64,000 nt of DNA, taken from NCBI GenBank assembly GCA_038116745.1, contig JAYODW010000004.1, positions 50,408 through 114,407 on the forward strand, given 5' to 3'. Shown here one piece after another: positions 41,219 to 59,980 of the stretch. Origin of the DNA: Gammaproteobacteria bacterium. Lineage in GTDB: Bacteria; Pseudomonadota; Gammaproteobacteria; Ga0077536. Under the pieces are notes generated by a model, which was given only the letters and a program-made list of their open reading frames with translations, ran no database searches and was not told the origin of the DNA. How positions within the stretch are numbered: position 1 is the stretch's first letter; the number at the start of each line of letters is the position of its first letter. Made by a program: the position numbers and the translations under genes.

Positions 41219-43408
41219 ATGAAGCGGATCAGAAAAGTCCAGGTGTCGACCGGCGTTTACTGGGTAGAAGTGCCGGACGCCAACGCCTACGTGCTCTGCG
41301 GAGCGCCTGCCGACAGCACCAAGCATCTGTTCAAGCGCGGTCTGATCGTTCCCACCGAGAACGACGGTGTGAGTTTCGAGACGGGTCCGAACATCATCTT
41401 GCTTTCAGATCTGATGCTGCAGAACGGCATGTTCTGCAACATGGTTGAATTCCCCATACTGCAGATGCTCTACCGTCAGGGCATGTTGATCCCGGGACAT
41501 CCGAACAACACGGGCCAGAAGCCGCTCCTGGTCGGGTCACCGGATCAGATAGAAGCGCAGCTGCAGTACATCTATCGCGGTAATTACGGACTGGTTTCGA
41601 CCGAGGAGCTGATGGACGCGGGCATGGCTCCGTCAATGGCCGACGAGCTTATGGAAATGAAGCTCAAGTTCGCCTTCGGAAAGATTCACGACACGCTAAA
41701 TTTTCTGGAGACCTGTCCGCTCGGCGCGGCGCGGGTGGAAATCCGCCCGGGGCTCGGGCTGAGGCGGGTGCGGGCGAACGTTTTCGAATTTGATTACGAC
41801 GAGGAGTCGGTCACGATCGACCTCAATCTGGGTAACCACGAAAAATACAGTTCTCCTATTCCGCTCGATTTCCACAACATACAGAAGGAGTACTTCGCGG
41901 TTATCCACAGCGGAGAGGGCGACGGGTGGGATACCGATCGCTCAGCGATGATGTCCATTCTGATGTTTCAGGGGAAGGTGTACCTCATCGATGCTGGTCC
42001 CAGTGTCATTCAGATCCTCGAAGCGCTGGGGATCTCGGTCAATGAGGTTGAGGGAATCTTCCACACGCATTCCCATGACGATCACTTTGCCGGTCTACCG
42101 GCATTGATGAGAACTGATCGACGGCTCAAGTACTTCGCGACGCCCATGGTGCGGGCGTCCGTGGCGAAGAAAATGTGTGCGCTGCTGTCGATGGACGAGA
42201 GCGACCTCGAGTATTACTTCGACATAGAGTCGCTGCAGCACGACACCTGGAATGATATCGACGGCCTGGAAGTGAAACCGATCATCTCCCCGCACCCGGT
42301 CGAAACGACAATCTTTCAGTTCCGCACGCTGTGGGAGGATGGCTACAAGGTATACGCGCACTATGCGGATATCGCCGCGTTTTCCGTCATTGACGGAATG
42401 GTCAAACGAAATGCGGATGAAGCAGGAATCTCGCCGGAGTTTGCCGAGCGCGTGAAGCGGAGCTATCTCGAGCCCGTCGACGTCAAGAAAATCGATATTG
42501 GTGGCGGCATGATTCATGGAGCCGCCAAGGATTTCCGCGCGGACAGCTCAAAGAAAATCGTGCTCGCACATACCGCGCTGGCTCTGAGCGATGAGCAGAA
42601 AGAAATCGGCTCCCAGGCCGCTTTCGGCACGGTTGACGTCCTGATTCCTTCGTTTCAGGACTATGGGCTCAAAGCGGCGTTCGATTATCTGCAGGCGGAT
42701 TTTTCCGACGTGCCCAGTTCGCAGTTCCGGATGCTCCTGAACCATCCGGCGCCAACTCTTAATCCCGGTACCATCGTGGTTCGTGAGGGCGAGGTGTGCG
42801 ATTACACCTATCTCATCCTGAGCGGTTTCGTGGAGATGATTCGGTCATCCCGGCAAGTCAAGCGGCAGCTTTTCGCGGGTTCCATGATCGGTGAAGTGAG
42901 TGCGTTGAGAGAACGTCCGTCCGAGTTCACTTTTCGAACCTTGTCCTATGTCAGGGCGCTGAAGGTGCCGGCACGCCTCTATCGGGACTTTATCCGAATA
43001 AACAACCTCTATTCTCAGGTTGAGCGATTGCACGAAGCGTGGAATTTCCTGATCGAATCCTGGCTCTTCGGCGATGGGATCCCGGATACTGTGCTGAACC
43101 TGCTGGTCCAGAACATCGACCTGCAGGAGCACCCCTGGGGCCACGAATTTGACCTGAAATCAGACCGATCTTTGCGCATGCTCAAGTCCGGCAAGGTTGA
43201 GCTGTACAAGGGTGAGCAGTGTCTCGAGCACCTGCAGCCGGGTGATTTTTTTGGCGAGGAGTGGATTGTCGGCGGGTGGGACTCGGACCGGCGTGTGAGG
43301 GTCGCATCAGATAGCGCCGAGGTTTATGCCATTCGCTCAGAGAAGCTGGAGTACATACCGATCTGTCGCTGGAAGCTGCGCGAGATAGGTGCTCGGCGTC
43401 GTGTGTAG
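41219..43408 (+). CDS. multidomain protein: unknown N-terminal domain + MBL-fold metallo-hydrolase + two cNMP-binding domains
   Basis: MBL motif HTHSHDDHFAG (HxHxDH) with AGP...KVYLIDAGP upstream. The C-terminus carries two cNMP-binding-like beta-barrel/helix units (...GEVCDYTYLILSGFVEM...FAGSMIGEVSAL...; ...YKGEQCLEHLQPGDFFGEEWIVG...). GC is lower than in the surroundings. Confidence 0.75.
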   Translation: MKRIRKVQVSTGVYWVEVPDANAYVLCGAPADSTKHLFKRGLIVPTENDGVSFETGPNIILLSDLMLQNGMFCNMVEFPILQMLYRQGMLIPGHPNNTGQKPLLVGSPDQIEAQLQYIYRGNYGLVSTEELMDAGMAPSMADELMEMKLKFAFGKIHDTLNFLETCPLGAARVEIRPGLGLRRVRANVFEFDYDEESVTIDLNLGNHEKYSSPIPLDFHNIQKEYFAVIHSGEGDGWDTDRSAMMSILMFQGKVYLIDAGPSVIQILEALGISVNEVEGIFHTHSHDDHFAGLPALMRTDRRLKYFATPMVRASVAKKMCALLSMDESDLEYYFDIESLQHDTWNDIDGLEVKPIISPHPVETTIFQFRTLWEDGYKVYAHYADIAAFSVIDGMVKRNADEAGISPEFAERVKRSYLEPVDVKKIDIGGGMIHGAAKDFRADSSKKIVLAHTALALSDEQKEIGSQAAFGTVDVLIPSFQDYGLKAAFDYLQADFSDVPSSQFRMLLNHPAPTLNPGTIVVREGEVCDYTYLILSGFVEMIRSSRQVKRQLFAGSMIGEVSALRERPSEFTFRTLSYVRALKVPARLYRDFIRINNLYSQVERLHEAWNFLIESWLFGDGIPDTVLNLLVQNIDLQEHPWGHEFDLKSDRSLRMLKSGKVELYKGEQCLEHLQPGDFFGEEWIVGGWDSDRRVRVASDSAEVYAIRSEKLEYIPICRWKLREIGARRRV

Positions 43409-44316: not shown

Positions 44317-46362
44317 TCATTCCACCGCAATCCCGCCCTCCGCGAGGGCCTGTTTGAGCTGCGCAACCAGGCGCGACCACTGCACCCGGTGCACCCGGCC
44401 GATCAGATCAACCCGGGGCAGGCCCGCGCCCTTGACCAGGTAGTAGCCATCTTCTGCCGGCATGACGCCATCCATGTGGCAGATGTCGTTTTCCAGGCGG
44501 CAGGACACGCCGAGGCGGTCATAGCCGAAGTGTTTGAATACGCGCAGGAATGTAGTCGACAGCGATGGGCCTCCGCCGGCCACCCTGGAGATAGTGTCGA
44601 CCGCACGCTGGCTCAGGCGGTGACGCGAGTCATCATCCTCGGGCGTGCGCAGGCTGAGATCGAAGCCAACCGGTTCGCCTTTGACGATCCGCAGCTTCTC
44701 GATATCACCATCGAGACGACCACTGACCTGGCCGAAAGGCACCACCTGCGTGATCTGTTCGAGATCCAGACCGCGCATGCGGATGGATGCACTGACCTCG
44801 GGCACGAGCCCGAAAGGCTCCGCGATACGCAGCTCCGCGACTTCAATCGCGCCGTCAAATGCGCTCGCCTCGAGCGTCCCGCCGAGGGTCACGGTGCCAT
44901 CCTGATAGGTCAGCAGCGGCAGCCGGCCGGACAGGCTACCCGCGAACGGCGGCCAGTCGAGGGCCAGGGTCAGCTGACCCAGATCGATGGGCTCCAGCGC
45001 TGCTTCGAATCTGAGCGCAATGTCGTCGCTGGCGTAATTCCGCAGCGAAAAGGCATCCACGCGCAGGGCGCCTCCGAGCAAAGGCACACGCACCGGCGCC
45101 AGCAGGTCGACAGCCTGCCCGGCCATGCCGAGTTCAAGCGTCAGCGCGCCGAAGCCGGCACCGTGCACAAAACCGCCATCCAGCGTAATCAGGCTCGAGC
45201 TGAGGGCGTCACCGCGCGCCGCCCAGATAACTTCACCGTTTATGCCGTAGACGGCAAAACGGCCCTGGCGGTCCTCCAGATGAACCTGTGAGAGCGACAG
45301 ATCAATGGACTGCAGGTCGCCGGCCGCCAGCTCAAAACGCCCCGCAAGCTCGCCGCCGATATCCAGAGTGGCGAACGCCGTGCCGACCAGAAACCCGGCC
45401 AGATATAGATCGTAGAGCGCAGGAAAGCGTCCCTGTCGGATCGCGCCGCGAACGCTGGTGAGCTCTCCTTCTTCCAAGCGCAGTTCATCGAGCGTGACGG
45501 ACAACGCACCAGGCTGCTCGAGCTCAAGTCCGCGCAGCGACAGGACAGCTGCCGCTGGCTCGTAGCTCAGTGCGGTGCTCAAGCGCAGGGGAAATCCGGC
45601 CAGGTCCAGATAGACCGGTTCCACGTAGGCACCGCCGGCGTCGACACCGAGCGTCAGCGTCCCGCGCCACGGCGCCGCATTCCCGCCGCTGAGCTGAAAG
45701 CCGAGAAGCGCATCAAGCGCCTCCGTCGCCACACGACCACTGTCATCACTGCACGCAACGTCGCTGAACTGCATCTCACCCGCAGCGCTTACCCCGGAAT
45801 CCGCTGACTCAAGCCGCAGACTGAAACTCACCTGTCCCGACGAAAAGCTCAGCCCCCGAAGATGTGGCTGTGGTAGTGGCAGCTCGGCGAGAGCGAGACC
45901 TGTTCCCGTCGCCGTAACTGACAGCGCACCGTCCCGCACATCCAGGATCAGCCCGAGCGCCAGTGTGCCCCCGGCCAGCGGAACCGGGAACAGGTCAACG
46001 CCAAGTCGTTGCCCGGGGACGTCATAGCTCAGCGTTGCCTGCATCGGCGGCCAGCCCGGCACCCGTAGGTCAGCGTCACGGCAGGCGACCTCAAGAGCGC
46101 TGATCGACACGCCATAGCAGTGCAAGGAAACATCCTGCAGACGACCTACCGGCGACGGCAGCTCCAGGACGCCCAGCGACAACGTCAGCTCCGGTCCCCG
46201 CGACCCGGCCCAGTCGACGGTGAGGCGCAGGGTCTCGGCGCGCCAGCCCGCACCCTCGATGGCGGCAAGCGTCAGCGCACTCGGCTCTGCAGCATGCGTT
46301 GTCGCGCTAAAGCCAAGCAATACGGCCAGCGCGCCCGCTCGCAGCCGGCCACCAAAACTCAT
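44317..46362 (-). CDS. YdbH/AsmA-like large periplasmic protein
   Basis: Signal peptide. 681 aa, Gly/Leu/Ala-rich repeats. C-terminal YYLVKGAGLPRVDLIGRVHRVQW-type motif. Confidence 0.45.
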   Translation of the reverse strand: MSFGGRLRAGALAVLLGFSATTHAAEPSALTLAAIEGAGWRAETLRLTVDWAGSRGPELTLSLGVLELPSPVGRLQDVSLHCYGVSISALEVACRDADLRVPGWPPMQATLSYDVPGQRLGVDLFPVPLAGGTLALGLILDVRDGALSVTATGTGLALAELPLPQPHLRGLSFSSGQVSFSLRLESADSGVSAAGEMQFSDVACSDDSGRVATEALDALLGFQLSGGNAAPWRGTLTLGVDAGGAYVEPVYLDLAGFPLRLSTALSYEPAAAVLSLRGLELEQPGALSVTLDELRLEEGELTSVRGAIRQGRFPALYDLYLAGFLVGTAFATLDIGGELAGRFELAAGDLQSIDLSLSQVHLEDRQGRFAVYGINGEVIWAARGDALSSSLITLDGGFVHGAGFGALTLELGMAGQAVDLLAPVRVPLLGGALRVDAFSLRNYASDDIALRFEAALEPIDLGQLTLALDWPPFAGSLSGRLPLLTYQDGTVTLGGTLEASAFDGAIEVAELRIAEPFGLVPEVSASIRMRGLDLEQITQVVPFGQVSGRLDGDIEKLRIVKGEPVGFDLSLRTPEDDDSRHRLSQRAVDTISRVAGGGPSLSTTFLRVFKHFGYDRLGVSCRLENDICHMDGVMPAEDGYYLVKGAGLPRVDLIGRVHRVQWSRLVAQLKQALAEGGIAVE

Positions 46363-46377: not shown

Positions 46378-47325
46378 TCAGCTGCGCAGGCGCCCGCAGC
46401 GATACCCGAGCCGCGGGAAATGCACATGAACCCGTCCCGTTCGCGGCCCGTCGGTCGCAAGCACGATGCGCTGCTTATCGATAACCACCAGCTCACCACT
46501 GGCCGGTGTGTCCTGGTTGTCGAGCGGCATCACCCGCACTCGGTCACCGGGCTCTAAACCCTCCGGAGAAAAATCACCAGCCGAGTCATCAGGCAATGTC
46601 GCTGGTTCGGCAGATCGGGCCACATCCAGTGCTGCGGCGGGATCGAATGCCTCCATGACGCCGTGACCGATTGCCGCCACACGGGCCATCCACGCCCGCA
46701 GCCGTGGCAGCCCGGATGGCAGGGCTTCTTTCCCGCCAATGGTCTGCAGAAACCAGGGAGCTTCGTAGAGCGCGAAATCCGCCAGTGTCGGCGTTGGGCC
46801 CAGCACCCAGGTGCGACCGTCTGCGAAGAGGGACTCGATCTTTTCAAGCTGTGGGCCAATCTGCGGCAGGTATTTCTGCGCGGACGCCCGGACCTGCGCC
46901 TCGCTGGGACACGGCTTACCGTGCAGCCGGGCGCGATCAGCATGAAACGCCGCCGTGAATCGCGCGGCGTGAACCCCGGTGATGTAGAGCGCGAGCGGCC
47001 GGCACACGCTGTGCTCGGCCCAGTAAACCAGCGCGTCGAGCTGGGTCCGACCCGCTGGATTATCGTCGGGATAGATCGAAGGCACCGGTGCAAGAGACTC
47101 AAGCCGATCTGCAATCAGCTGGGTGTCACAGTACACATCGGCCCCGATCTGCAGGGCCGGTGTGCGCCGGTACCCGGCGGTCAGCGGGGTGTAATCAGGC
47201 TTGGGCGCATAGGCGGGAATGTCGACCGAGCGCCACCCGAGCCCCTTGAGACCCAGTACCAGTCGTACCTTCTCCGAGTAATTGGAGAAGTCGTAGTGGT
47301 GCAGGATCAGCTCGGACGGCGCCAC
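46378..47325 (-). CDS. glutathione S-transferase family protein with C-terminal extension
   Basis: GST N-terminal thioredoxin-like segment (LILHHYDFSNYSEKVRLVL). About 90 extra C-terminal residues. Confidence 0.6.
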   Translation of the reverse strand: MAPSELILHHYDFSNYSEKVRLVLGLKGLGWRSVDIPAYAPKPDYTPLTAGYRRTPALQIGADVYCDTQLIADRLESLAPVPSIYPDDNPAGRTQLDALVYWAEHSVCRPLALYITGVHAARFTAAFHADRARLHGKPCPSEAQVRASAQKYLPQIGPQLEKIESLFADGRTWVLGPTPTLADFALYEAPWFLQTIGGKEALPSGLPRLRAWMARVAAIGHGVMEAFDPAAALDVARSAEPATLPDDSAGDFSPEGLEPGDRVRVMPLDNQDTPASGELVVIDKQRIVLATDGPRTGRVHVHFPRLGYRCGRLRS

Positions 47326-47334: not shown

Positions 47335-48123
47335 TTACAGGCTGCCCAGGAAATCATCCAGCGCGCGATTGAAGTCTTCCGGCACTTCGAGGTTCGAGAC
47401 GTGCGCGGCGTTCAGCTCGACGTAGCGCGAGCCTGCGACGCGGGCGTGCATGTCCTGCATCGCCACCGCCGGCGTGCCGGCATCGTGCGTGCCGGCGATG
47501 AAGAGCAGGGGCGTGGTAATCCCGGCGATCTGCTCAAGATAGTCCAGCGCCTTGATCGCGCCGCAGCAGCCCAGGTAGCCATCCAGCGGTGTGGCGCGGA
47601 CCATCGCCCGGACCGCGTCCATCTGCGCCGGCCGGGCCTCGCGGGTCGGTGCCGTGAACCAGCGCTCCAGCGTCGCGTCCAGAATCGGTTCCAGGCCGCT
47701 GGCGCTGACCGCGCGGATGCGGTCATCCCATATCTGGCGCCCCTCTGGCGGAAACCCCGCCACGCAGTTCGCCGCAGTCAGGGAGAGGAGCCGCTCGGGA
47801 TGGGTCAGCCCCAGTCCGAGCGCGGTCATGCCGCCCATGGACAAGCCACAGAAGTGAAATTTTTCCACCCCGAGCGCTTCCGCCAGGGCCGCGGCATCGT
47901 CAACCAGATCGGCAAAGCTGTACGGCCCCGGCGGCACCTCAGTCTGTCCGTGACCACGCTGGTCATAGCGCACCACGCGGTAGCGATCGCGCAGGTGCTC
48001 AGCCTGCGGCGCCCACATCTCGAGGTTGGCACCCAGGGAATTAGACAACAGCAGCACCGGTGCGTCGGCCGGCCCGTCGACCGCGTGGTTGATGCTGATA
48101 GTGCGTGTTTTGATTGTGCTCAT
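47335..48123 (-). CDS. pcaD: 3-oxoadipate enol-lactonase (alpha/beta hydrolase)
   Basis: 262 aa with GLSMGG nucleophile. Overall pattern typical of PcaD. Confidence 0.7.
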   Translation of the reverse strand: MSTIKTRTISINHAVDGPADAPVLLLSNSLGANLEMWAPQAEHLRDRYRVVRYDQRGHGQTEVPPGPYSFADLVDDAAALAEALGVEKFHFCGLSMGGMTALGLGLTHPERLLSLTAANCVAGFPPEGRQIWDDRIRAVSASGLEPILDATLERWFTAPTREARPAQMDAVRAMVRATPLDGYLGCCGAIKALDYLEQIAGITTPLLFIAGTHDAGTPAVAMQDMHARVAGSRYVELNAAHVSNLEVPEDFNRALDDFLGSL

Positions 48124-48128: not shown

Positions 48129-49217
48129 TTACTCTCCAAGCTGCCGGTTCACCGCCGGCATCACTTCTTCGGCCATTAATTCCATCGAGCGGCGCGACAG
48201 CTGGACGTCAGCCCAGTCATGCCCGGCATACACCAGCGTGCCGAAAGCACCGACTTCCTCACGCAGGGCGAGGATCTGCTCGGTCACCTGCTCAGGCGTG
48301 CCGCAGATAACCAGAGAGTTCATCACAAACTCGTGGGTCACTTCGGCGTCCGGCATATCGCGGCGATTCTTGAACAGGTCAGGGCGACCGTTGCCGATCA
48401 GTTTCCGCATCAGGCTGCGATAGTAGTTGCCATAAGGACCGTCGGGATCCATGGCATAGGCGCGTGCGGTTTTCTCATCTTCAGCCACGAAAATACTCTT
48501 CGCCACCCGCCACTGCCCGACGTCAGGCTCCCGTCCGCTCTCCGCCCAGCCCTCGAGCAGCTTGTCCCAGTGCGTCCTGACCCAGGCCGGCTGGAGAAAA
48601 TTGGCAGAGATGATCGACCAGCCGTGGCTGGCAGCGTTCGACACCGAGTCGGAATATGGCGACATGCACGCCACTACAATAGGCGGATACGGCTTCTGCA
48701 GCGGTCCCAGAATGGCGCCCTGCCCGATCTCTAGATCCATGGTGCGTCGCGTGGTCACCTCCCAGAACTCGCCCTTGAGGTCGTAGGGGGCCTCGCCGTC
48801 CCAGATTGCCAGCACCTGGGCGATGGCTTCGTGGAACATCGCCTTGCGATCGCGGTCCAGATTACCGAAGACCTCGGCATCAGAGCGCAGCCCGCCAGGA
48901 CTGATCCCGAGAATAAAGCGGCCAGCGAGCATGTGATCGACCATCGCGACCTGAGCGGCAACCGCGGCAGGATGGCTGTTGGGCAGGTTGATAGTGCCGC
49001 TGCCGAGACGGATCTGCTTGGTGTGATAGGCCAGGCTGGCCAGAAAGATCAGGCAGGAGGTGATCGTTTCCGCCTTGTCGGTGACGTGTTCGCCGACAAA
49101 GGCCTCGTGAAAGCCGAGACTGTCAGCAAGCAGGATCGCCGCCCGATCTTCAGCCAGTGTGATGCTGTAGTCGCGCGTGATCGGATGCAGCGGCATGGTG
49201 AAATAACTGAGCTTCAT
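48129..49217 (-). CDS. LLM-class flavin-dependent monooxygenase/oxidoreductase
   Basis: Luciferase-like pattern (FHEAFVGEHV, ICGTPEQVTEQI). Confidence 0.8.
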   Translation of the reverse strand: MKLSYFTMPLHPITRDYSITLAEDRAAILLADSLGFHEAFVGEHVTDKAETITSCLIFLASLAYHTKQIRLGSGTINLPNSHPAAVAAQVAMVDHMLAGRFILGISPGGLRSDAEVFGNLDRDRKAMFHEAIAQVLAIWDGEAPYDLKGEFWEVTTRRTMDLEIGQGAILGPLQKPYPPIVVACMSPYSDSVSNAASHGWSIISANFLQPAWVRTHWDKLLEGWAESGREPDVGQWRVAKSIFVAEDEKTARAYAMDPDGPYGNYYRSLMRKLIGNGRPDLFKNRRDMPDAEVTHEFVMNSLVICGTPEQVTEQILALREEVGAFGTLVYAGHDWADVQLSRRSMELMAEEVMPAVNRQLGE

Positions 49218-51463
49218 GATGTAGTCCCGTGGGAATCGTCAGCGTTGAAAGATGAGTTTTTTCGCGCGCGATACTCGGCCGCGGACAGCGCCGCCTGGTA
49301 GCGCGCATAGGCCGCCTTGCGATCCGGTGGGGCCGCTGCAGCGGCGTCGAAGGTCGGCGCGAGGTCCGGGGGGTAGCAGCCGAGCTTCTGCTCTGAGGCC
49401 CCCATCGGCGCGCGGAACACCAGCTCGCGCACGTTCGTCCGGCGCGCTTCGATAACCTGACCGTTTTCGTCGCTGTCTAGATCCCACCACCATTTCTTCA
49501 GCGGGTTGATACGCCCATTTCCGACCCGGTCGTCGAGCGCTGCAATCCAGCCGCGCGTGAACGGCAGGTGCATCGCGGACCACAGAAAGGGCCGCTCCGC
49601 GAGCACGCCTTCGATGTTCCACGGGCAGGTTTTCATACAGCGCCCGCACATCGAGCCGGCGGCATTGGTAATGCGGTAACGCGCGCATTTTTCGACGTCG
49701 GGCTTCCACATCTCGTAGCCGTTGAACATGATCTTGTCGCCGAAAGGGATCGCCGCACAGGGACATTCGCGCGCGCATTTGCTGCACTTGTTACAGAAAT
49801 CCTGCAGGCCGAAGTCGATCGGTTGATCCACCGCCAACGGCAGGTCGGTGGTGATGATCCCGGACTTGAAACGCGGCCCGACGAACGGGTTCAGCACCAG
49901 CTCGCCGATCCTCGAGAGCTCGCCCAGGCCGGAATTGAGGATCAGCGGAATGTGCAGTACATCCTGGTCCATCACCGAATGCCCGCGTGCGCCATAGCCG
50001 AGACGCCGGATCTGGGAGCCGACCACGCCGCCGAGCAGCTGCGCGCGCATGTAGGCGCGCATCGATTGCGCGCCCGAGATCCAGTCGTCACCGCTCGCGC
50101 CCTCCATGGTTTCGTAACCCTGGTCGATCAGGATCACGATGGCATAGCGGTGATACGGCTCGATGGGAGAACCGTCGGTGTCGTGGGAGTACCAGGCATA
50201 GTCGGGCACGCGACAGATCCCGACCATGTCCGCCCCCAGGTAATACAGCGCCGCCTTGACGAGTTCTGCATTGCGCTTCGGATCGTCATAGCCCGGCGTC
50301 CGCTCCGGCGCCGTCTCACCGTATTGCAGCGGCACCATCCCGCCCAGCACCGGCACCATGGCGTGGCCGAACGGGGATTTGGTGATCATGCGAAAACCTT
50401 TCAGCTCACGCTGCGCCTTCTCTCCCAGGTCGCCCATGGCGGCGCGGATAAACATATCGTGGCGCTTGGGCACCCGCGGCACCGCCTGTTCATCCACCAG
50501 GGTGGTGGGCTCGGCCACTCGCTTCACGCGCTCCATGGGATACCGCCCGAGGTGATAGTCGCGCCCGCGGTATGGCTCGCCGGCATATCCGGGGCGCGCG
50601 CCGCCCCAGCCCAGCCACCATTTGAATCCGCGCGCCGATCCACTGCCGGCGGCCAGCGGACCGGCATCCTCCAGCGCAAGCGTGGTGCTCACCGCGACCA
50701 GTCCGAACCGCCGGCCGACAAAAGGGTTCCCGGATCCGCCGTCACGTTGTTCAGCAAGTCCGGCCGCCAGCGCCAGCGCGTCAAGATCAAGCTCAGCCGC
50801 GGTCACGGTATGCAGCCGCGCGTCGAAACCCAGCATGCGCAGGTAGTTGGCCATGACCGCTCCGACCTCGGCACCGCGCAGTGCGGCGCGGGCGGCCTGC
50901 ATGTCGAGGATCCAGTCGGCGCCGGGCTCATCGGCGCGCGGGTCGCGCGGGTACTCAGTCAGGATGACCAGCGCGAACGGATGCTCGCAGCGCTCCTCTT
51001 CAACCGCGGACCGCGCCCAGGCTTCGCGTCCCTCGGCCACCACGTTCTCGGCCATCCGGTTGTCCGCCGCGCCTGGGGCGTAGGTGCGCGCCTGCTCCTC
51101 GGCCAGCGACACATTGGTGACGGGGACAGTGAGACGGGCGGCCTCCGGGACCCGACAGGTGGCTGCCATACTCGCATCCAGGTAATAGCAACCGCCCTGC
51201 AGGTGACGGCTGCGCTCCAGCGGCGAGTCCGGGATGGGCGCCACTGCGGGCGCCACCGGTCCGTTGCGCATCCGGTCCATGAGATCGATGTAGTCGCGCA
51301 GCACGTTGCGCAGGGAGCCGGGGCGCTGCGGCGCCTCCAGCTCGAAGGGAGCGGCAGGCGACCCCGTCGGCGGCACAGCCGCACCCGCGGCGCGTGGAAG
51401 TCGCTCCAAAGGAAAGCTACCGGCCCAGGCCGGACGTCGACGATGGGAGAACAGACGAACCAT
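49214..51463 (-). CDS. reductive dehalogenase homolog (cytoplasmic, NpRdhA/BhbA-like 'catabolic' type), cobalamin + 2x[4Fe-4S]
   Basis: C-terminal CNKCSKCARECP (CxxCxxCxxxCP) and CARYRITNAAGSMCGRCMKTCP ferredoxin-type motifs. About 750 aa with no TAT signal. The 4-nt overlap with the downstream LLM gene suggests an operon. Confidence 0.7.
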   Translation of the reverse strand: MVRLFSHRRRPAWAGSFPLERLPRAAGAAVPPTGSPAAPFELEAPQRPGSLRNVLRDYIDLMDRMRNGPVAPAVAPIPDSPLERSRHLQGGCYYLDASMAATCRVPEAARLTVPVTNVSLAEEQARTYAPGAADNRMAENVVAEGREAWARSAVEEERCEHPFALVILTEYPRDPRADEPGADWILDMQAARAALRGAEVGAVMANYLRMLGFDARLHTVTAAELDLDALALAAGLAEQRDGGSGNPFVGRRFGLVAVSTTLALEDAGPLAAGSGSARGFKWWLGWGGARPGYAGEPYRGRDYHLGRYPMERVKRVAEPTTLVDEQAVPRVPKRHDMFIRAAMGDLGEKAQRELKGFRMITKSPFGHAMVPVLGGMVPLQYGETAPERTPGYDDPKRNAELVKAALYYLGADMVGICRVPDYAWYSHDTDGSPIEPYHRYAIVILIDQGYETMEGASGDDWISGAQSMRAYMRAQLLGGVVGSQIRRLGYGARGHSVMDQDVLHIPLILNSGLGELSRIGELVLNPFVGPRFKSGIITTDLPLAVDQPIDFGLQDFCNKCSKCARECPCAAIPFGDKIMFNGYEMWKPDVEKCARYRITNAAGSMCGRCMKTCPWNIEGVLAERPFLWSAMHLPFTRGWIAALDDRVGNGRINPLKKWWWDLDSDENGQVIEARRTNVRELVFRAPMGASEQKLGCYPPDLAPTFDAAAAAPPDRKAAYARYQAALSAAEYRARKNSSFNADDSHGTTS

Positions 51464-51492: not shown

Positions 51493-53100
51493 TCAGCTAC
51501 CTGGCGTCATCACCAGGTCAATGACAGCGGCGGTACCGGCCGCAAATGCGCTTTCGAGCGCGCCTTCGAATTTGCCCGTGTGCTCCACCCGGGCGCCGAA
51601 GAGCCCGAAGGTCCGCGCCATGGCCGCGAAATCGGGGTTGGTCAACTCGGTGCCCAGAGGACGTCCGGGATAATGACGGTCCTGGTGCATTTCAATCGTG
51701 CCGTAGCGGGCGTTATTGAATACCAGGATTAGCGGCCTCGCGCCGTACTTAGCCGCAGTGGCCAGCTCCATCCCCGTCATGAGCATACCGCCGTCGCCGA
51801 CGCAGCCGATCACCTGACGCTCGGGCAGCGTGAGCGCGGCGCCTATGGCGCTGGGCACACCGTGCCCCATCGCGCCGTTAACCGGACCGAGCAGACGACC
51901 AGGTCGACGGTACTGGCGGTAGCGGTGCGGCCAGACGGTGAAATTGCCGGCGTCGATCGCCACTACCGCGTCGTCGCGAAGATGGCTGTTCAGAATCTGC
52001 ATGACTGCATGCGGATCGAGCGGTTCCCTGCCGCGCTCGCGCTCGAGGCTGGCGCGATAGGCTGCATTAAGACGCTGGCACCAGGGCACGGTGTCCGCGC
52101 GCACGCCGGGTGCGGCTGCGGCCAGCGCTGCGCTCGTCGCTTCGATATCCGCCACCACCGCAATCTGTGGGGAATAATTCACACTGAGCTCGCGCGCCTG
52201 GGGGTAGACGTGGATCAGCGTGCGCTCGCGCCCGTCATTGAACAGGGTGTACCCCAGCGTCGTCGGCTCGTCGAGACGCGCGCCCAGCACCAAAACACAA
52301 TCTGCCTCGGCTGCAAGCTCTGTCGCCTCGGGATGGGCGTTGTAGCCCAGGTAGCCGGCATAGCAAGGATGCCGGTTGTCGAAACAATCCTGGCGACGGA
52401 AGGCCGTCATCACCGGAATCACATGAGCCTCGGCAAAACGCACCAGGTCGGCGACGGCGGCGTCGGTCCAGGTGCCGCCGCCGGCAATGATCAGCGGCCG
52501 CTCAGCCTGCGCCAGCGCCGCACGGATGCGACCGAGGTCGTCCGCGCCCGGGCCAGCCGCAGCCGCCGGGGCGACTCGTGGACCCGCCTGCGTGGTTGCT
52601 TCAGTCAGCACATCTTCAGGTAATGCCAGCGCCACAGGCCCCGGACGCCCGCTTTCCGCAATGCGAAACGCGCGGGCAAAAGCCGCGCCCAGGTCGTCGG
52701 CCTGCTCGATCTGCTCAACGTGCTTGACCAGCTGCGGCAGCAAGCTGGTGTAGTCCAGCTCCTGAAAGGCCTCGCGACCTAAATGGCGGCGCGACACCTG
52801 GCCGATGCCGATCACCAGCGGGATCGAAGCCTGCTGCGCGACATGCAGAGCTATCGTCGCATTGGTTGCACCCGGGCCACGGGTGACAAAGACGACGCCA
52901 GCCCGCTGCCGCAGCCGTGCATTCGCGCAGGCCATGAAGGCGGCGCCGCTTTCGTGCCGACATGAGATGTAGCGGATCTGATCCTGCGCGCCGTAAAGCC
53001 CGTCCAGTACCGCGAGATAGCTTTCGCCGGGCACGCCGAAGACGGTATCAACCCCCTGCTCCAGCAACGCCGCGACGACCTGTTCACCGCCGCTGCTCAT
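51493..53100 (-). CDS. thiamine pyrophosphate-dependent enzyme (acetolactate synthase/benzoylformate decarboxylase family)
   Basis: TPP_enzyme N/M/C architecture and GDGG TPP-binding motif (GCVGDGGMLMTG). Confidence 0.8.
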   Translation of the reverse strand: MSSGGEQVVAALLEQGVDTVFGVPGESYLAVLDGLYGAQDQIRYISCRHESGAAFMACANARLRQRAGVVFVTRGPGATNATIALHVAQQASIPLVIGIGQVSRRHLGREAFQELDYTSLLPQLVKHVEQIEQADDLGAAFARAFRIAESGRPGPVALALPEDVLTEATTQAGPRVAPAAAAGPGADDLGRIRAALAQAERPLIIAGGGTWTDAAVADLVRFAEAHVIPVMTAFRRQDCFDNRHPCYAGYLGYNAHPEATELAAEADCVLVLGARLDEPTTLGYTLFNDGRERTLIHVYPQARELSVNYSPQIAVVADIEATSAALAAAAPGVRADTVPWCQRLNAAYRASLERERGREPLDPHAVMQILNSHLRDDAVVAIDAGNFTVWPHRYRQYRRPGRLLGPVNGAMGHGVPSAIGAALTLPERQVIGCVGDGGMLMTGMELATAAKYGARPLILVFNNARYGTIEMHQDRHYPGRPLGTELTNPDFAAMARTFGLFGARVEHTGKFEGALESAFAAGTAAVIDLVMTPGS

Positions 53101-53137: not shown

Positions 53138-54109
53138 TCACGGTGCCAGAATGGGAATGCTGAGTTCAGCGCGATCCTCGAGATGCAGATGCGCCGCAGC
53201 GGCATCGGCAAGCGCAAAACGTTTGACCGGATGCGGCCGCAGAACGCCTGCATCCAGCGCCTCGAACACGCGCCCGGCGCTCAGCTCGAGCTCGGCGCGT
53301 TCGGCAACGTAATCGTTAAGACGCGGACGCGTCAGATAGAGCGATCCCAGGCGCGACAGTCCCAGCACATCGTAGGGGTCCGGCTTTCCGGAAGCGTTGC
53401 CGTAGGCAACCATGAGGCCGCGGCGACGCAGGCATTCCAGTGATTTCTCGAACGTGTCTTTCCCGACCGAGTCGTAGACCACATCCACGCCGCGTCCGCC
53501 CGTCATCGCCTTCACCTGCTCCACGAAGTCGTCCTGCTGATGCAGCAACACCTGCTCCGCTCCGGCCTCCCGCGCCGCGGCAAACTTGCTCTCGCTGCCG
53601 ACGGTGGCGATGACCCGAGCGCCCAGGTGTCGCGCCCACTGCACCATGAGCAGACCCGTGCCGCCGACCGCCGCATGGACAATGACGGTTTCATCCGGCT
53701 GCACGGCATGCAGCCGGAACAGCAGGTATTCGGCCGTCATAGCGCGGGTCAGGGTCGCGGCCACAACATCAGGATCAACGCCGTCCGGAATGCGGACCAC
53801 CTGATCCGCGCGGATCACCCGCCTTTCACAGTAGGCCCTGGCGACTGAACCGTAGGCCACCGTATCACCCTCAGCCAGCTCACTTACCCCTGGACCAAGT
53901 GCTTCAACCACCCCCACCGCCTGGTCGCCGATCACGGCCGGCAGGGGAATGGGATAAATGCCACGACGGAAATAGGTGTCGATGTAGTTGACCCCGATCC
54001 CCGTGTGACGGATGAGCACTTCGCCCGGGCCCGGGCTGCCCAGATCGATTTCGGACAGGGTCAGCTGTTCAACGCCGCCATAGGCGTGAATGACAATAGC
54101 GGGGGTCAC
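53138..54109 (-). CDS. qor: NADPH:quinone oxidoreductase (MDR/zinc-ADH superfamily)
   Basis: Qor pattern (MTPAIVIHAYGG..., AAVGGTGLLMVQWA). Confidence 0.85.
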   Translation of the reverse strand: MTPAIVIHAYGGVEQLTLSEIDLGSPGPGEVLIRHTGIGVNYIDTYFRRGIYPIPLPAVIGDQAVGVVEALGPGVSELAEGDTVAYGSVARAYCERRVIRADQVVRIPDGVDPDVVAATLTRAMTAEYLLFRLHAVQPDETVIVHAAVGGTGLLMVQWARHLGARVIATVGSESKFAAAREAGAEQVLLHQQDDFVEQVKAMTGGRGVDVVYDSVGKDTFEKSLECLRRRGLMVAYGNASGKPDPYDVLGLSRLGSLYLTRPRLNDYVAERAELELSAGRVFEALDAGVLRPHPVKRFALADAAAAHLHLEDRAELSIPILAP

Positions 54110-54177
54110 GCGTGTTCTCCGGGTGTGTGGTCAGCCGAGTATACCCGCGCGGCATGGGGCCTGATTCCCTGCAATGC
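53969..54177. repeat. direct repeat copy 1 (about 209 bp; qor 5' end + upstream region)
   Basis: About 97% identical to 55711..55919 (4-5 mismatches by eye). Confidence 0.8.
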
Positions 54178-54692
54178 CAACGCCAACAACCGTTGGGGTA
54201 CACCTCATTCGAACGGAAATCAGACGTTCACAACACGTAAATCATCTCTAGCAGCCCAGCTGCCTAGATCTTCCGAACCCATAACCAAGCCGTTCGAGAC
54301 TGGTTATAGCGGTGAGAGCTGCTCGCCGCATGAGGTCGACATCCATATCTCATGGACATTTTTCTACTACAGACCGGCTAGCTTCAGAGGGCGCGCCGCC
54401 GGACAGGCCAGTAATTGCCCAAAATGATGCGTTTCCTTTCCCGGTTCTTTCGTCCGCAGGGGGGATGGTCGAAATAGGACCTCTGTCTTGCGCCTTGCGC
54501 ATATCCGCTGAGAGGCCATCCGAAGCTTGCGAAACCTCTGCCGGACCGCCCCAGCCTCAGACATCGAAACAGAACAGGTAGGGAAGGCATCGCGGTTAGC
54601 TATTCAAAAAGCGGGGTTGTCCTTCTCAGCTTCTATCTGCGGAAGCTGGCTCACCCCCCCTAAGGGCGGGCTGTCTCAACTGCTCAGATAGC

Positions 54693-55382
54693 TTAACCGG
54701 CCAATCGCAGAGCGTAGTAGAAATGATGCGAGAAAAGCCCAAGATTCGATTCCTGAAACAGCCGCTTCCAGGGTTTCCGGGACACCGGCCTGTAAATTCT
54801 AATTAATTCGAATCCCAGTCTCCGGGACAGTTCATAGATCATAGACTCAGTCATCCATAGGACATGTTCACAGCTAGCAGTGAACATTCGCTTCCTAACG
54901 ACCCGGAAAACGTTTGTTAAACAAAAAGGGTTAGGGGTCGCGATCAGCAAAATTCCGTCGAGCTCAAGATGTCGTCTCGCAAACGCAAACAATGAGTCCA
55001 GGGAATGCACGTGCTCTATCAAATCTCCCATAAAGACGACTTGGAACTGCCTGCCCAGAAACCGATCCGATGTCGCGTCACATAGCGCCACATCAAAGCC
55101 GTCCTTCTTCAGCGCATCAACCATAGACTGAACAATATCGATCCCAAGGCAGTCCGAAGCGACTTGAACGATCTTCCTGTGCTTCCACTTGGTTGACCTA
55201 AAGCGAGGCAAATCGTGGGCCGCCGCTCCGATATCTAGGACCGACTTGCCTTCAAACAAGTGGAGTAACCCACTGAAGCCACCGGCAAGGGGTTGTGTCA
55301 AGGACTGCAGATGCCTCTGAATATCTTCGAGGACAGAAGTGTCTTTCGGATCGTCTGTTCGTGCGGTCCAGTCAATAGTCAT
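54693..55382 (-). CDS. class I SAM-dependent methyltransferase
   Basis: Motif I (VLDIGAAAHDL). GC markedly lower than flanking genes. Confidence 0.7.
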   Translation of the reverse strand: MTIDWTARTDDPKDTSVLEDIQRHLQSLTQPLAGGFSGLLHLFEGKSVLDIGAAAHDLPRFRSTKWKHRKIVQVASDCLGIDIVQSMVDALKKDGFDVALCDATSDRFLGRQFQVVFMGDLIEHVHSLDSLFAFARRHLELDGILLIATPNPFCLTNVFRVVRKRMFTASCEHVLWMTESMIYELSRRLGFELIRIYRPVSRKPWKRLFQESNLGLFSHHFYYALRLAG

Positions 55383-55578
55383 AGTCAGGAGCCTCGATAA
55401 TGCCCCCGCTCTGCTCAGGTAGTTTTGCTTCTTTCACGCTACTCACGATATTCGCAATGGAATCGCAGCCTTCCTGCTTGGATAGCATACGACCAACCTG
55501 ATGAATCACTGGATGCGGCACTGAGTTGACGAATGCTTCCCCATCTTCCAAGGCAGCGATGGGATAGCGTCCCATCAC
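55372..55578 (-). CDS. small hypothetical protein (68 aa) upstream of the methyltransferase
   Basis: Low-GC ORF overlapping the MTase start by about 10 nt. No family recognised. Confidence 0.25.
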   Translation of the reverse strand: MMGRYPIAALEDGEAFVNSVPHPVIHQVGRMLSKQEGCDSIANIVSSVKEAKLPEQSGGIIEAPDYDY

Positions 55579-55710
55579 ATGACAAGCTGCTCAATAGAAG
55601 CGTTATAGCGACTGAGGGGACGTTGCCCCCCGCTGTAGGCTCACATAACGAAATCGGGCACCTCAAGGAGCTGGTCACAGGCGGTGGGTAACAGGATAGA
55701 GCCTTGGACA

Positions 55711-55919
55711 GAAATAGGTGTCGATGTAGTTCACCCCGATCCCCGTGTGACGAATGAGCACTTCACCCGGGCCCGGGCTGCCCAGATCGATTTCGGACAG
55801 GGTCAGCTGTTCAACGCCGCCATAGGCGTGAATGACAATAGCGGGGGTCACGCGTGTTCTCCGGGTGTGTGGTCAGCCGAGTATACCCGCGCGGCAAGGG
55901 GCCTGATTCCCTACAATGC
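55711..55919. repeat. direct repeat copy 2 (about 209 bp), containing a 47-codon qor 5' fragment (55711..55851, minus)
   Basis: Duplicate of 53969..54177. Encodes MTPAIVIHAYGGVEQLTLSEIDLGSPGPGEVLIRHTGIGVNYIDTYF with no continuation. Confidence 0.8.
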
Positions 55920-55948
55920 GGGCGCCAGCAACTGCCGGAGAGCCATCC

Positions 55949-56536
55949 ATGTCAGCCACCGAGGTCCGCGTTTATTTCAACTTCCGCAGCCCCTACGGTT
56001 ACCTGGCTTCCCACAGCCTGTTTGAACGCCTCGCGCGTTATGACATCAGGCTGGGCTGGCGCTCCCTGGGGGGCTGGGACGGCCGCTCACCGCCTGACCG
56101 GGCCAAGGTCAAAATCCCACTCACGCGACAGGACGTCGCGCGCTGGTGCCGGCGCCTCAAGGTGCCCTTCAACCCGCCGCCGGTCAGCACCGATCCCACG
56201 CCGGCAGCGATGGCCTGCTTCGCCGCCGAGAGCGCCGGGCTGCTCGCGCCCTATGTGAAAGCGGTGATGTGGGAGGAATGGGCGGAAGGCCGGGATATCG
56301 GTCAAACCGAGGTGCTGCTCGATATTGCCAGCCGCATCGGCCTCGACGGCGATGTCGTCGAGCAGGCGCTGAACGATGCGTCAAACGCCGGCCGTCTGTC
56401 AGCCAACTGGGCCGAGGCGAGCGAACTCGGCGTCATCGGCGTACCGACCTTCGTCGTCGGCGACGAGATCTTCTGGGGCAATGACCGCCTCGATTTCGTC
56501 GAGGAGCATCTGGCGGGTCTCGGACTCGCGCGCTGA
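55949..56536 (+). CDS. 2-hydroxychromene-2-carboxylate isomerase / DsbA-like thioredoxin-fold protein
   Basis: HCCA-isomerase pattern (VRVYFNFRSPYGYL, GVIGVPTFVVGDEIFWGNDRL). Start ATG 55949. Confidence 0.75.
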   Translation: MSATEVRVYFNFRSPYGYLASHSLFERLARYDIRLGWRSLGGWDGRSPPDRAKVKIPLTRQDVARWCRRLKVPFNPPPVSTDPTPAAMACFAAESAGLLAPYVKAVMWEEWAEGRDIGQTEVLLDIASRIGLDGDVVEQALNDASNAGRLSANWAEASELGVIGVPTFVVGDEIFWGNDRLDFVEEHLAGLGLAR

Positions 56537-56539: not shown

Positions 56540-56990
56540 GGCCCTCAGGCAAGCGCCGGCATCACCTGAGCGACGATCAGCTCGCGTGGGCGCATCAGGT
56601 CCGCATGTCTCACATCGCCGGTAGCGATCTGCGCAGGCAGATAAGTCGCGCCCGCCTGCTCAGGCTACGACAGCAGCTCATCAGCGATCCTTTGCGGCGA
56701 AACGCACACCGTCACGCCGATCTCGCGAGCGGTTTCAAAGTTGTACAGCGGACCGAGCCGGATACGGCTGGTCGCCTGAGTGACTGCAGCAAAAACACTG
56801 AAGGACAGGATCCCACTCCAAGCGGCGTGCCGTGATGTTCCGCCAGGTGGTAACCCCGATAGCCGCCGGCCTCGGCAGCCTGGATGACTTCAATACGGTC
56901 AGCCAGGGGGCGCGCGTGCCCACGGCTTCTAATCGAAGTGGTCAAAAATTCCAAACTGCACGCGTTCTCATCCTTGCTGTCGGGTGTCTT
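56540..56990 (-). pseudogene. remnant of an LLM-family monooxygenase gene (internal deletion/frameshifts)
   Basis: Minus-strand frames encode an N-terminal LLM motif (...AGGYRGYHLAEHHGTPLGV) and a C-terminal LLM motif (...VCVSPQRIADELL, compare ICGTPEQVTEQIL in 48129..49217) only about 350 bp apart. Confidence 0.45.
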
Positions 56991-58060
56991 CAGGCGCCCG
57001 TCGGACGCTTCCAGATACCGCGCTCGACCATCAGCGCAATCTGCCGCTCCGTCACCTCCCGCGCGTATTCCGCGTGGTCCATCGGCGCGCGCTCGGCATA
57101 CAGGTTTTTCGGGTAGATGGGCCGTTCGTAGATCAGCTGGATCATCTCCGTACGCAGATCCTTCATCCAGTTGGTCCACTTGGAATGCGTTCGATGGTGA
57201 CGCAACGCCTCGATGTTGACCGGACCGCAGACGCTGGTTGAGACCCCGCCATAATCCTGCCGGCCGACTACCTGACCGCGATAATCCACCAGCATGGAGT
57301 GCCCGCCAAAGGTATCGATGGGCGCTTCTGAATCGGCATCGAGATAATAGGTGCCGAGGTTCGGCGCCAGCACGTAGAAGTTGTTGTCGAGCGCACGGGC
57401 GCGGGTCTGGATCTCGAAGTAATCATTCGACGCGGCGGGGTGCGGGATCGATGCGCGGTACACCAGCTCCGCACCGTTCATTGCCAGACCGCGCGCGTGT
57501 TCCGGGTAGGACCCCTCGTTAGCCATCATGATCCCGAGCCGGCCGATAGGCGTGTCGACTACCGGCCAGAACGCATCGAGGCTGCGCCCGTAGCGTTCTA
57601 TCCACCAGTCAAACACGTCATGCGGGCACATCGAGTGCTCGACCGGATACAGGGGCGCAACCTTGTAGTGCTGCAGGATGACCGCCCCATCAGGATCGAT
57701 GATGAAGCCGACGTTGAAGAAACGCTCGGGCCAGTCGGGGTGTCGCGCCTTGGCCTGCGCCATGAGGTAGACCCCGTACTCGCGCGCGATCGCGCCCAGT
57801 GCGTCGGTTTCGGGGCCCGGGATATCGATCGCACAGGTACGCGCGTAGATCGCGTGGTCCAGATCCAGTACTTCGTCGTTGAACGCCTGCAGCGCGCCCT
57901 CGGGTAATGCGATTAGGCGCACCGGCAGGTCCAGGCCCGCAAGCCAGCAGGCGGCTTTAATCATGTGCCGCTGGTGCTCGATGTTGCGCAGGATGTCCGT
58001 CCGCTCGCGGATCCCCCACACGGTGGGGACCAGGCCAACGGCGTTATACGGTTCGATCAT
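56990..58060 (-). CDS. carbon-nitrogen hydrolase, aliphatic amidase/formamidase (AmiE/AmiF)-like, catalytic Cys replaced by Ala
   Basis: Collinear with AmiE: Glu (LIALPEG) and Lys (HYKVAPLYP) conserved. The nucleophile position IICDDGNYPE is MMANEGSYPE here. Confidence 0.75.
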   Translation of the reverse strand: MIEPYNAVGLVPTVWGIRERTDILRNIEHQRHMIKAACWLAGLDLPVRLIALPEGALQAFNDEVLDLDHAIYARTCAIDIPGPETDALGAIAREYGVYLMAQAKARHPDWPERFFNVGFIIDPDGAVILQHYKVAPLYPVEHSMCPHDVFDWWIERYGRSLDAFWPVVDTPIGRLGIMMANEGSYPEHARGLAMNGAELVYRASIPHPAASNDYFEIQTRARALDNNFYVLAPNLGTYYLDADSEAPIDTFGGHSMLVDYRGQVVGRQDYGGVSTSVCGPVNIEALRHHRTHSKWTNWMKDLRTEMIQLIYERPIYPKNLYAERAPMDHAEYAREVTERQIALMVERGIWKRPTGA

Positions 58061-58242
58061 CGTGAGATTCTCCGACTGCCGCGTGAGGTCGCAGCCCCTG
58101 GGGATGATAGCGCCCTGCCCGCCCGCGACGCGGACGCTGCCGGCGCGGTTTCGCTGAACGGCGCGATCTGCGAATCTAGCGCGCCCCGCTCATGAATCAT
58201 TACCTCGCGGAACCCGGTCGCCGGCTGCCCAAAGGAAAGCGC

Positions 58243-59301: not shown

Positions 59302-59328
59302 GCGCCCGACTCACCTGGAGAACACACC

Positions 59329-59958: not shown

Positions 59959-59980
59959 CGCACCGATAACGGGCAGGCAG

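Follow-up and report, generated by a model that had tools for sequence, protein, structure and literature searches.

Catabolic reductive dehalogenases (RdhAs) tolerate oxygen, which makes them of interest for bioremediation. To our knowledge, few of them have been characterised, namely BhbA, NpRdhA, JtRdhA and a Roseobacter debrominase, and all of these come from Alpha- or Betaproteobacteria. The characterised enzymes all act on ortho-halogenated phenols (PMC10463259). Most catabolic RdhAs carry a fused PDOR domain, while a 'truncated' clade that includes NpRdhA lacks it; in this NpRdhA subclass, a ferredoxin oxidoreductase and ferredoxins are encoded beside the dehalogenase (PMC10463259). In NpRdhA, residues S422, K488 and R552 contact the hydroxyl of the substrate, Y426 is the proposed proton donor within a Tyr-Lys dyad formed with K488, the K488Q variant is inactive, and K307 makes a salt bridge with the benzoate carboxylate at the entrance of the pocket (PMC7565698). 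Here, we describe an rdhA gene found in a 64,000-nucleotide stretch of DNA (contig JAYODW010000004.1 of the gammaproteobacterial assembly GCA_038116745.1), referred to below as the window. Its product is very probably a cytoplasmic enzyme of the unfused NpRdhA lineage, dependent on cobalamin and on two [4Fe-4S] clusters, which would feed a halophenol into a hydroquinone pathway as a carbon source.

A reductive dehalogenase of the NpRdhA lineage

The rdhA gene is an exact ATG-to-stop frame of 749 codons, as expected from the open reading frame (ORF) of about 750 residues to which an earlier note on this DNA had drawn attention. A Shine-Dalgarno sequence, GAGAGGAGGA, is located 7 nt 5′ of the ATG. 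The closest solved relative of the product is NpRdhA (4RAS, 6ZXU; phmmer E 3e-189), with which residues 2-106 and 160-740 align at about 50-53% identity. With BhbA, the identity is 49% across 91% of the query. The respiratory enzyme PceA is matched by the C-terminal half only (E 3e-22) and the RDH complex 8Q4H at E 2e-20. The product also passes TIGR02486, the NCBIfam model of reductive dehalogenases, with 194 bits for a curated cutoff of 160.35. With E 3e-189 to NpRdhA, chance cannot explain the similarity of this predicted protein to reductive dehalogenases. In agreement with the alignments, an AlphaFold2 model (pLDDT 79.8, pTM 0.88; predicted confidence measures), for which 36 aligned sequences served as input, was superimposed by Foldseek on NpRdhA (6ZXU/4RAS) with target-normalised template-modelling (TM) scores of 0.90-0.91, as compared to about 0.54 with PceA and no more than 0.37 with the epoxyqueuosine reductase QueG. 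The earlier note had proposed an alignment to NpRdhA as a check; this alignment runs end to end and the cofactor and catalytic residues are kept. No identical record was found in an exact-sequence look-up; the homologs include a 98% relative. From its sequence, the rdhA product is clearly an uncharacterised new member of the known NpRdhA family, not a new type of enzyme. The same note had called it NpRdhA/BhbA-like. The first half of this description stands. Since BhbA, at 1071 aa, includes a fused reductase, the architecture is that of NpRdhA and of the 'truncated' class, not that of BhbA.

Residue conservation was followed by carrying over the NpRdhA numbering through the HMMER alignment, and counts refer to 117 sequences aligned with MAFFT (115 homologs, the rdhA product and NpRdhA). 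The eight Fe-S cysteines of the rdhA product align with NpRdhA C512 to C568 and are invariant in all 117 sequences. They include the two C-terminal ferredoxin motifs already recognised in the earlier note, CNKCSKCARECP at residues 557-568 and CGRCMKTCP at residues 606-614, to which C593 has to be added. On the catalytic side, Y471 is found in 117 of the 117 sequences and the S467 position is kept in 116 of them. K533 is invariant, as is R597, the equivalent of NpRdhA R552. Because the triad that binds the hydroxyl is conserved, and because the characterised catabolic RdhAs share a specificity for ortho-halophenols (PMC10463259), the window enzyme would act on such compounds as well.

The distal part of the pocket departs from this conservation. 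With respect to NpRdhA, the changes are F290M, K307L, A419G and N452V, and residues around F310/P311 differ as well. The resulting signature, MLGV, occurs in 79 of the 117 aligned sequences. In addition, residues 107-159 form a 53-aa insertion in the N-terminal non-catalytic domain, where NpRdhA has 10 aa. This insertion, modelled at low confidence (pLDDT 58-68), is found at a length of 40 aa or more in 104 of the 117 sequences. Shared so widely, the insertion and the MLGV signature are marks of a large subclade, not an oddity of one gene. As regards the substrate, K307L removes the lysine that contacts the carboxylate. Considering this replacement, together with F290M, A419G and N452V, and reasoning by analogy with NpRdhA, the enzyme would probably prefer a phenol whose para substituent is neutral or hydrophobic to 3,5-dibromo-4-hydroxybenzoate.

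Read from its sequence, the window RdhA is a cytoplasmic protein. Its N-terminus is homologous to NpRdhA residues 1-24 and carries no Tat or Sec signal peptide, the maximal 15-residue Kyte-Doolittle mean being 0.63 over the first 70 aa; no transmembrane-like segment was seen in the product either. The earlier note had remarked on the absence of a TAT signal, and indeed there is no hydrophobic N-terminal region. At the other end, the protein stops at residue 749, co-linear with NpRdhA, and a C-terminal PDOR-like domain is absent. When the reductase modules of fused relatives were compared by tblastn to the 64-kb window, the sole match was a Fer2 ORF at 60038-60157 (E 2e-5). Thus, as the earlier note had said, no reductase partner is visible nearby, and a lone 2Fe-2S ferredoxin is all that the 64 kb offer. 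This ferredoxin, 8.5 kb from rdhA, is a possible candidate for the electron carrier. The electron donor is otherwise probably a ferredoxin or a PDR-like reductase encoded elsewhere.

A proposed halophenol route and its alternatives

The rdhA gene is the third of seven genes on the minus strand, which are read as an operon from their tight spacing (-4 to 37 nt between genes). In order, they encode a medium-chain dehydrogenase/reductase (MDR), a thiamine-diphosphate (ThDP)-dependent enzyme, RdhA, a luciferase-like flavin monooxygenase (LLM), a PcaD-like hydrolase, a glutathione S-transferase (GST)-like protein and an exported hypothetical protein. The ThDP gene lies 29 nt upstream of rdhA. The stop codon of rdhA overlaps the LLM start in a 4-nt ATGA, an overlap that had been claimed earlier, and the two genes are translationally coupled; the LLM gene is separated from the hydrolase gene by 5 nt. 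The best solved relative of the LLM is 3,6-diketocamphane 1,6-monooxygenase, a type II Baeyer-Villiger enzyme (E 1e-27). No rdhB-like small membrane ORF was found in the operon. Given the gaps and the fact that every gene is accounted for, there is no room for rdhB.

At 7 kb from rdhA, a complete hydroquinone cluster (58192-64000) is found on the plus strand. A PF18191 match supports the assignment of its hydroquinone 1,2-dioxygenase (61698-63250). The aldehyde dehydrogenase that closes the cluster, assigned to its family from motifs that we recognised, is a candidate 4-hydroxymuconic semialdehyde dehydrogenase. As predicted from these genes, ring cleavage is encoded nearby and leads from hydroquinone to 4-hydroxymuconic semialdehyde, maleylacetate and 3-oxoadipate. 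The neighbours listed in the earlier note were all found, that is an enol-lactonase-like hydrolase, two GSTs, maleylacetate reductase and a VanA-like oxygenase; the ThDP and MDR quinone-reductase-like genes upstream of rdhA had gone unmentioned. From these neighbours, ring processing of the hydroxyquinol/maleylacetate type had been proposed. Maleylacetate reductase is indeed encoded. The hydroxyquinol part does not hold, since a two-subunit hydroquinone 1,2-dioxygenase is present instead.

Considering the properties of NpRdhA, the following mechanism may be envisaged. The enzyme would bind a phenol in which bromine (or chlorine, or iodine) occupies a position ortho to the hydroxyl. The phenolic oxygen would be bound by S467, K533 and R597, with the halogen placed on the cobalt. 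The two Fe-S clusters would deliver two electrons, the halide would be released, and the carbon would receive a proton from Y471, itself activated by K533. O2-dependent enzymes of the adjoining genes would next oxidise the dehalogenated phenol, which would enter the nearby pathway through hydroquinone, maleylacetate and 3-oxoadipate. In such a scheme, the halophenol would be a carbon source, not a respiratory electron acceptor.

Several possibilities may be considered for the steps that lead to hydroquinone. In one model, which we liken to the 4-hydroxyacetophenone pathway, the LLM, the hydrolase, the quinone reductase and the ThDP enzyme would turn a dehalogenated para-substituted phenol into hydroquinone. 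This proposal stems from the proximity of the genes in one lineage and is put forward tentatively, its chances being somewhat less than even. The other order is equally compatible with the data: oxidation would come first and RdhA would act on a halohydroquinone. Candidate substrates of the insertion/MLGV subclade may be halogenated hydroquinones, as well as bromophenols with neutral or hydrophobic para groups, such as natural marine bromophenols and brominated alkyl or acyl phenols. A more complete picture would combine a distinct substrate range of this subclade, an RdhA-LLM-hydrolase unit delivering hydroquinone and the stand-alone ferredoxin as electron donor; that all three hold together is unlikely. 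If they did, an undescribed reductive-then-oxidative route into the hydroquinone pathway would be at hand.

The relatives of rdhA give a broader view. Of the 8000 candidates examined, 3552 proteins scored E 1e-10 or better, so that the family is very large, and 594 genomic loci with rdhA homologs were found in the genome collection. Most relatives belong to metagenome-assembled genomes (MAGs) of Gammaproteobacteria, Alphaproteobacteria and Acidimicrobiia, several of them sponge-associated, and about 100 are unfused and of similar length. Three fused proteins, P0069, P0087 and P0093, are 57-61% identical to the rdhA product and share its insertion and MLGV signature; their C-terminal module comprises Fer2 and NAD-binding domains. 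As these fused enzymes lie inside the insertion/MLGV subclade, the reductase domain would have been repeatedly gained or lost.

Neighbourhoods were surveyed by all-against-all clustering of the ORFs in 80 loci and by Pfam annotation of the 135 nearest flanking ORFs of 69 loci (L001-L070). The neighbours are heterogeneous, with no universal neighbour or conserved reductase across the 80 loci. In 7-8 gammaproteobacterial loci, an HpaB-family monooxygenase is encoded directly downstream of rdhA, the gene order being MMPL, DUF1302, DUF1329, DSBA-like, RdhA, HpaB. Elsewhere, a 70%-identical homolog adjoins a dmpKLMNOP multicomponent phenol hydroxylase and a catechol 2,3-dioxygenase, and a 76%-identical one adjoins GST, LLM, DSBA-like and LigB-type dioxygenase genes. 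The fact that relatives adjoin O2-dependent phenol-oxidising enzymes supports the idea that the product of RdhA is a phenol bound for aerobic oxidation. Within the gammaproteobacterial subclade, the most consistent neighbour is a DSBA-fold gene, located directly upstream of rdhA on the same strand in 9-10 loci. Copies of it were found at about 9300-9990 in L006, L007, L009, L010, L012, L015, L017, L018 and L021, at 2512-3204 in L013 and at 8060-8632 in L083; the motif is SPYG in the window copy and SPYC in the others. Genes of the sulfatase family (6 members) and amidohydrolases (6 members) rank high among those that directly flank rdhA in the 69 loci. This may hint that sulfated or amide-linked halogenated natural products are the true substrates in the lineages concerned.

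A number of observations weigh against the assignment of the window RdhA to halophenol catabolism. Its catalysis and cobalamin binding are predictions, drawn from sequence and model. PF13486 (Dehalogenase), with which the earlier note had proposed to check the gene, has no match on the rdhA product at E up to 1, and the Fer4 models that had been named with it (PF12838 and PF13484 among them) all stay under their gathering scores. We take the PF13486 miss to mean that this model overlooks the catabolic lineage, and do not count it against the assignment, because in precomputed Pfam lists none of the homologs carries PF13486 either. No characterised member of the insertion/MLGV subclade was found, and the substrate class beyond 'ortho-halophenol' is uncertain because five pocket positions differ from NpRdhA. 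As far as accessory functions are concerned, an FNR- or PDR-type reductase was not detected by Pfam across essentially all long ORFs of the 64 kb. Cobalamin biosynthesis or uptake genes are missing among the Pfam-annotated long ORFs of the window, in which CysG (23794-25209) belongs with a sulfite-reductase cluster. Neither a cobalamin riboswitch nor any other RNA gave an Rfam match in the window. With the reductase, the cobalamin genes and the riboswitch all absent from the 64 kb, the supply of cofactor and electrons is not visible. Finally, the link with the hydroquinone pathway rests on proximity in one lineage, since the neighbours are not conserved beyond one related MAG contig (L013) and contigs carrying a 98%-identical copy of the operon.

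What else might this gene encode? One could imagine a B12- and Fe-S-dependent reductase with the RdhA fold that acts on a bond other than carbon-halogen, or on a non-phenolic organohalide, the insertion and the pocket then marking a different function within class-III cobalamin enzymes. The MLGV pocket, which differs from that of NpRdhA, is common to 79 of 117 sequences with no characterised subclade member found, and the ThDP enzyme, the Baeyer-Villiger-like LLM and the hydrolase do not by themselves demand a halogenated substrate. However, the equivalents of S422, Y426, K488 and R552 are invariant or nearly so, full-length identity to proven debrominases amounts to 49-53%, and relatives repeatedly adjoin phenol hydroxylases. 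These features make a function of this kind improbable. The gene might also be a non-functional relic, for instance one stranded without its reductase after loss of a fused PDOR domain, as could be suspected from the fused P0069, P0087 and P0093 in the same subclade and from the lack of a reductase in the window. Such decay is hard to reconcile with a full-length ORF that has a strong ribosome-binding site and keeps all catalytic and cofactor residues. Moreover, a 98%-identical copy lies in the same operon in independent samples, about 100 relatives are unfused, and NpRdhA, likewise unfused, is an active enzyme (PMC7565698, PMC10463259). A relic is accordingly given very little credit.

Two further readings concern the type of enzyme. 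Membership of the same superfamily, the E 3e-22 match to PceA and the passing of TIGR02486 would also be expected of a respiratory dehalogenase serving organohalide respiration. Yet the product lacks a Tat or Sec signal as well as any hydrophobic segment, the operon has no rdhB, and the TM score is about 0.54 with PceA as compared to 0.9 with NpRdhA. The extra N-terminal domain is typical of monomeric catabolic enzymes, and the surroundings are those of O2-dependent oxygenases and aerobic central metabolism. The lack of a signal and of rdhB and the low PceA score effectively refute a respiratory role, for which the odds are slight indeed. As for QueG, or a generic Fe-S protein misread as RdhA, the fold and the ferredoxin motifs are shared and TIGR00276 gives a weak match (E 2e-5). 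This match reaches 24 bits for a cutoff of 200, the QueG structure 5D6S is retrieved at E 0.13, and the rdhA product is twice as long as QueG and matches NpRdhA from end to end. A resemblance of the N-terminal 550 aa to QueG, or a lack of relation to RdhA, was the weak point foreseen in the earlier note; this region is homologous to NpRdhA. The E 3e-189 and TM 0.90-0.91 obtained with NpRdhA, against E 0.13 and TM of at most 0.37 with QueG, exclude the misreading, whose probability is negligible. The NpRdhA-type catabolic dehalogenase, probably acting on an ortho-halophenol, is the assignment that we retain.

Features of the window

The genes and residues discussed above are collected in the table, together with the evidence for each of them.

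Table. Features of the rdhA gene, of its operon and of the neighbouring hydroquinone cluster in the window
Feature	Position	Strand	Evidence
rdhA (cytoplasmic catabolic-type RdhA homolog, NpRdhA-like, no fused reductase)	49214-51463	-	ATG-to-stop ORF, 749 aa
RdhA, first Cys motif CNKCSKCARECP (C557, C560, C563, C567)	49760-49795	-	invariant in 117 sequences
RdhA, second Fe-S region: C593, R597, CGRCMKTCP (C606, C609, C613)	49622-49687	-	aligned to NpRdhA
RdhA, S467...Y471 (NpRdhA S422, Y426)	50051-50065	-	residue mapping
RdhA, K533 (NpRdhA K488)	49865-49867	-	residue mapping; invariant
RdhA, insertion, residues 107-159	50987-51145	-	gap between two HMMER domains
MDR-family NADPH:quinone-reductase-like protein, first gene of the operon	53138-54109	-	ADH_N + ADH_zinc_N; NF008024 295 bits, below cutoff 348
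ThDP-dependent enzyme, acetolactate-synthase-like superfamily	51493-53100	-	three TPP domains; NF006052 640 bits, cutoff 539; PDB relatives
LLM	48129-49217	-	PF00296 E 2e-47
PcaD-like alpha/beta hydrolase (3-oxoadipate enol-lactonase family)	47335-48123	-	TIGR02427 274 bits, just over cutoff 256
GST-like protein, 315 aa, uncharacterised GST family	46378-47325	-	GST_N + GST_C; PDB 4KF9 E 4e-63, 3IC8 E 2e-59, both uncharacterised
Exported conserved hypothetical protein, 681 aa, last gene of the operon	44317-46362	-	15-nt gap; signal-peptide-like N-terminus
DSBA-fold protein, 2-hydroxychromene-2-carboxylate-isomerase-like	55916-56536	+	PF01323; PDB 2IMD E 4e-15
Maleylacetate reductase	58192-59301	+	PDB 3W5S E 5e-103, 3HL0 E 2e-98
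GST, 209 aa	59329-59958	+	80%-identical homolog near rdhA in L083
Stand-alone plant-type 2Fe-2S ferredoxin, about 104 aa	59981-60295	+	Fer2 domain; C-x4-C-x2-C...C
VanA-like Rieske non-haem-iron oxygenase	60444-61625	+	Rieske + VanA_C; start inferred
Hydroquinone 1,2-dioxygenase, small subunit	61698-62195	+	PDB 5M21 E 5e-47
Hydroquinone 1,2-dioxygenase, large subunit	62234-63250	+	PDB 5M21 E 3e-140
Aldehyde dehydrogenase, runs off the window	63312-64000	+	translation

The same operon order, with about 98% identity, is found on two independent metagenome contigs. In L013, the single MAG contig with synteny, the ThDP, LLM, hydrolase and GST genes occur in the same order at 58-80% identity, and in L081 the MDR gene is found in the same order. 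At 4985-7193 of L013, the rdhA homolog is in separate pieces, the best tblastn segment covering residues 175-697, which suggests that it carries a frameshift or an assembly error. The operon has no megablast match in PLSDB, where a plasmid origin was looked for; by its context, the window rdhA is chromosomal. A scan for promoters and terminators over 43.5-58.5 kb returned nothing above expectation.

Two proteins encoded at the end of the operon deserve comment. The 681-aa exported protein has no Pfam, NCBIfam or PDB match. Among its 43 homologs in gammaproteobacterial MAGs, one carries PF11739 (YdbH-like), and the homolog present in a related MAG is unlinked to rdhA. A role as redox partner or anchor of RdhA was considered and rejected in view of the signal peptide, the lack of a cofactor motif or family match, and the unlinked homolog; the protein probably stands outside the chemistry of the operon. 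It might also be imagined that the 315-aa GST is a Xi-class glutathionyl-hydroquinone reductase. This is unsupported, its best solved relatives being 4KF9 and 3IC8, not PcpF/YqjG.

Divergently from the operon and upstream of it are encoded a methyltransferase (54693-55382), the DSBA-fold protein and a C-N hydrolase (56990-58060), the latter being nearest to formamidases and aliphatic amidases. A route of the bromoxynil type, combining a nitrilase with RdhA as on plasmid pBHB, was for this reason dropped: the C-N hydrolase is formamidase/amidase-like and shares 20% identity, over a partial alignment, with the nitrilase-family protein of pBHB. In the same region, the G+C content falls to 0.547 at 54001-56000, as compared to about 0.62-0.67 around. 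The dip spans the methyltransferase gene and intergenic regions of 583 and 533 nt; it may correspond to a recombination seam or to a regulatory region upstream of the rdhA operon.

Apart from these genes, the window contains on its plus strand two DUF1329 copies and a DUF1302 gene (3169-4551, 8123-9439 and 9520-11124), 40 kb from rdhA and amid genes for acyl-CoA dehydrogenases and enoyl-CoA hydratases. In sister gammaproteobacterial loci, genes of these two DUF families flank rdhA along with that of an MMPL transporter. Two more luciferase-like monooxygenases and a flavoprotein of the FMO/Baeyer-Villiger type are encoded at 11135-12055 (minus strand), 26115-27938 (plus strand) and 37665-38741 (plus strand), so that the region is rich in flavin oxygenases. 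Closer to the operon, a two-partner-secretion transporter of the ShlB/FhaC type (39503-41113, plus strand) is encoded beside an ORF that specifies a PT-TG pre-toxin domain (38888-39904, minus strand), the two frames overlapping as called, and 38888-41113 may be a polymorphic-toxin locus. It is followed at 41219-43408 (plus strand) by a 729-aa protein with metallo-beta-lactamase and cyclic-nucleotide-binding domains.

Significance and comparison with known systems

The window rdhA is firmly placed in a very large branch of RdhAs, uncharacterised and mostly gammaproteobacterial, with an altered distal pocket, and its genomic setting predicts a path from halophenol to phenol, hydroquinone and maleylacetate. 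It is also another instance of the electron-donor question raised by unfused catabolic RdhAs. Its value is that of a candidate for expression and substrate screening; the understanding of the family is unchanged and no new system is added.

The nearest described system is NpRdhA of Nitratireductor pacificus pht-3B, which has the same two-domain build, without fused reductase or signal peptide, and shares S422, Y426, K488, R552 and the eight Fe-S cysteines with the window enzyme. The two proteins differ by the insertion (10 aa in NpRdhA, 53 aa here) and by the pocket changes F290M, K307L, A419G and N452V and those of the F310/P311 area. The genomic surroundings differ too, as the redox cluster of the NpRdhA subclass (PMC10463259) is not matched in the window, where one 2Fe-2S ferredoxin and no reductase are found in 64 kb.

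BhbA, encoded by plasmid pBHB of Comamonas sp. 7D-2 and acting on 3,5-dibromo-4-hydroxybenzoate, offers a functional parallel, being a catabolic enzyme that operates in an aerobe and is encoded beside ring-cleavage genes (PMC10463259). In contrast with the unfused window RdhA, it has 1071 aa and a C-terminal reductase module. Furthermore, its gene is plasmid-borne, flanked by insertion sequences and feeds protocatechuate 4,5-cleavage, whereas the window gene lies near a hydroquinone pathway. A ThDP protein is also encoded on pBHB; at 22% identity, it was rejected as an ortholog of the window ThDP enzyme. More generally, the C-terminal PDOR-like module of the self-sufficient class, to which BhbA, JtRdhA of Jhaorihella thermophila and P0069, P0087 and P0093 belong, is absent from the window RdhA. 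The respiratory enzymes, represented by PceA of Sulfurospirillum multivorans and by the RDH complex 8Q4H, have the cobalamin-binding core and the two Fe-S motifs in common with it. Unlike the window RdhA, they are Tat-exported, anchored by RdhB and about 450-550 aa long.

Downstream of the dehalogenase, the likeness is to hydroquinone pathways of the HapCDEF/PnpCDEF type (5M21/4ZXA), whose two-subunit dioxygenase, maleylacetate reductase and aldehyde dehydrogenase are likewise encoded in the window. We know of no published pathway that couples an RdhA to the hydroquinone route; the coupling proposed for the window is drawn from the proximity of the genes.

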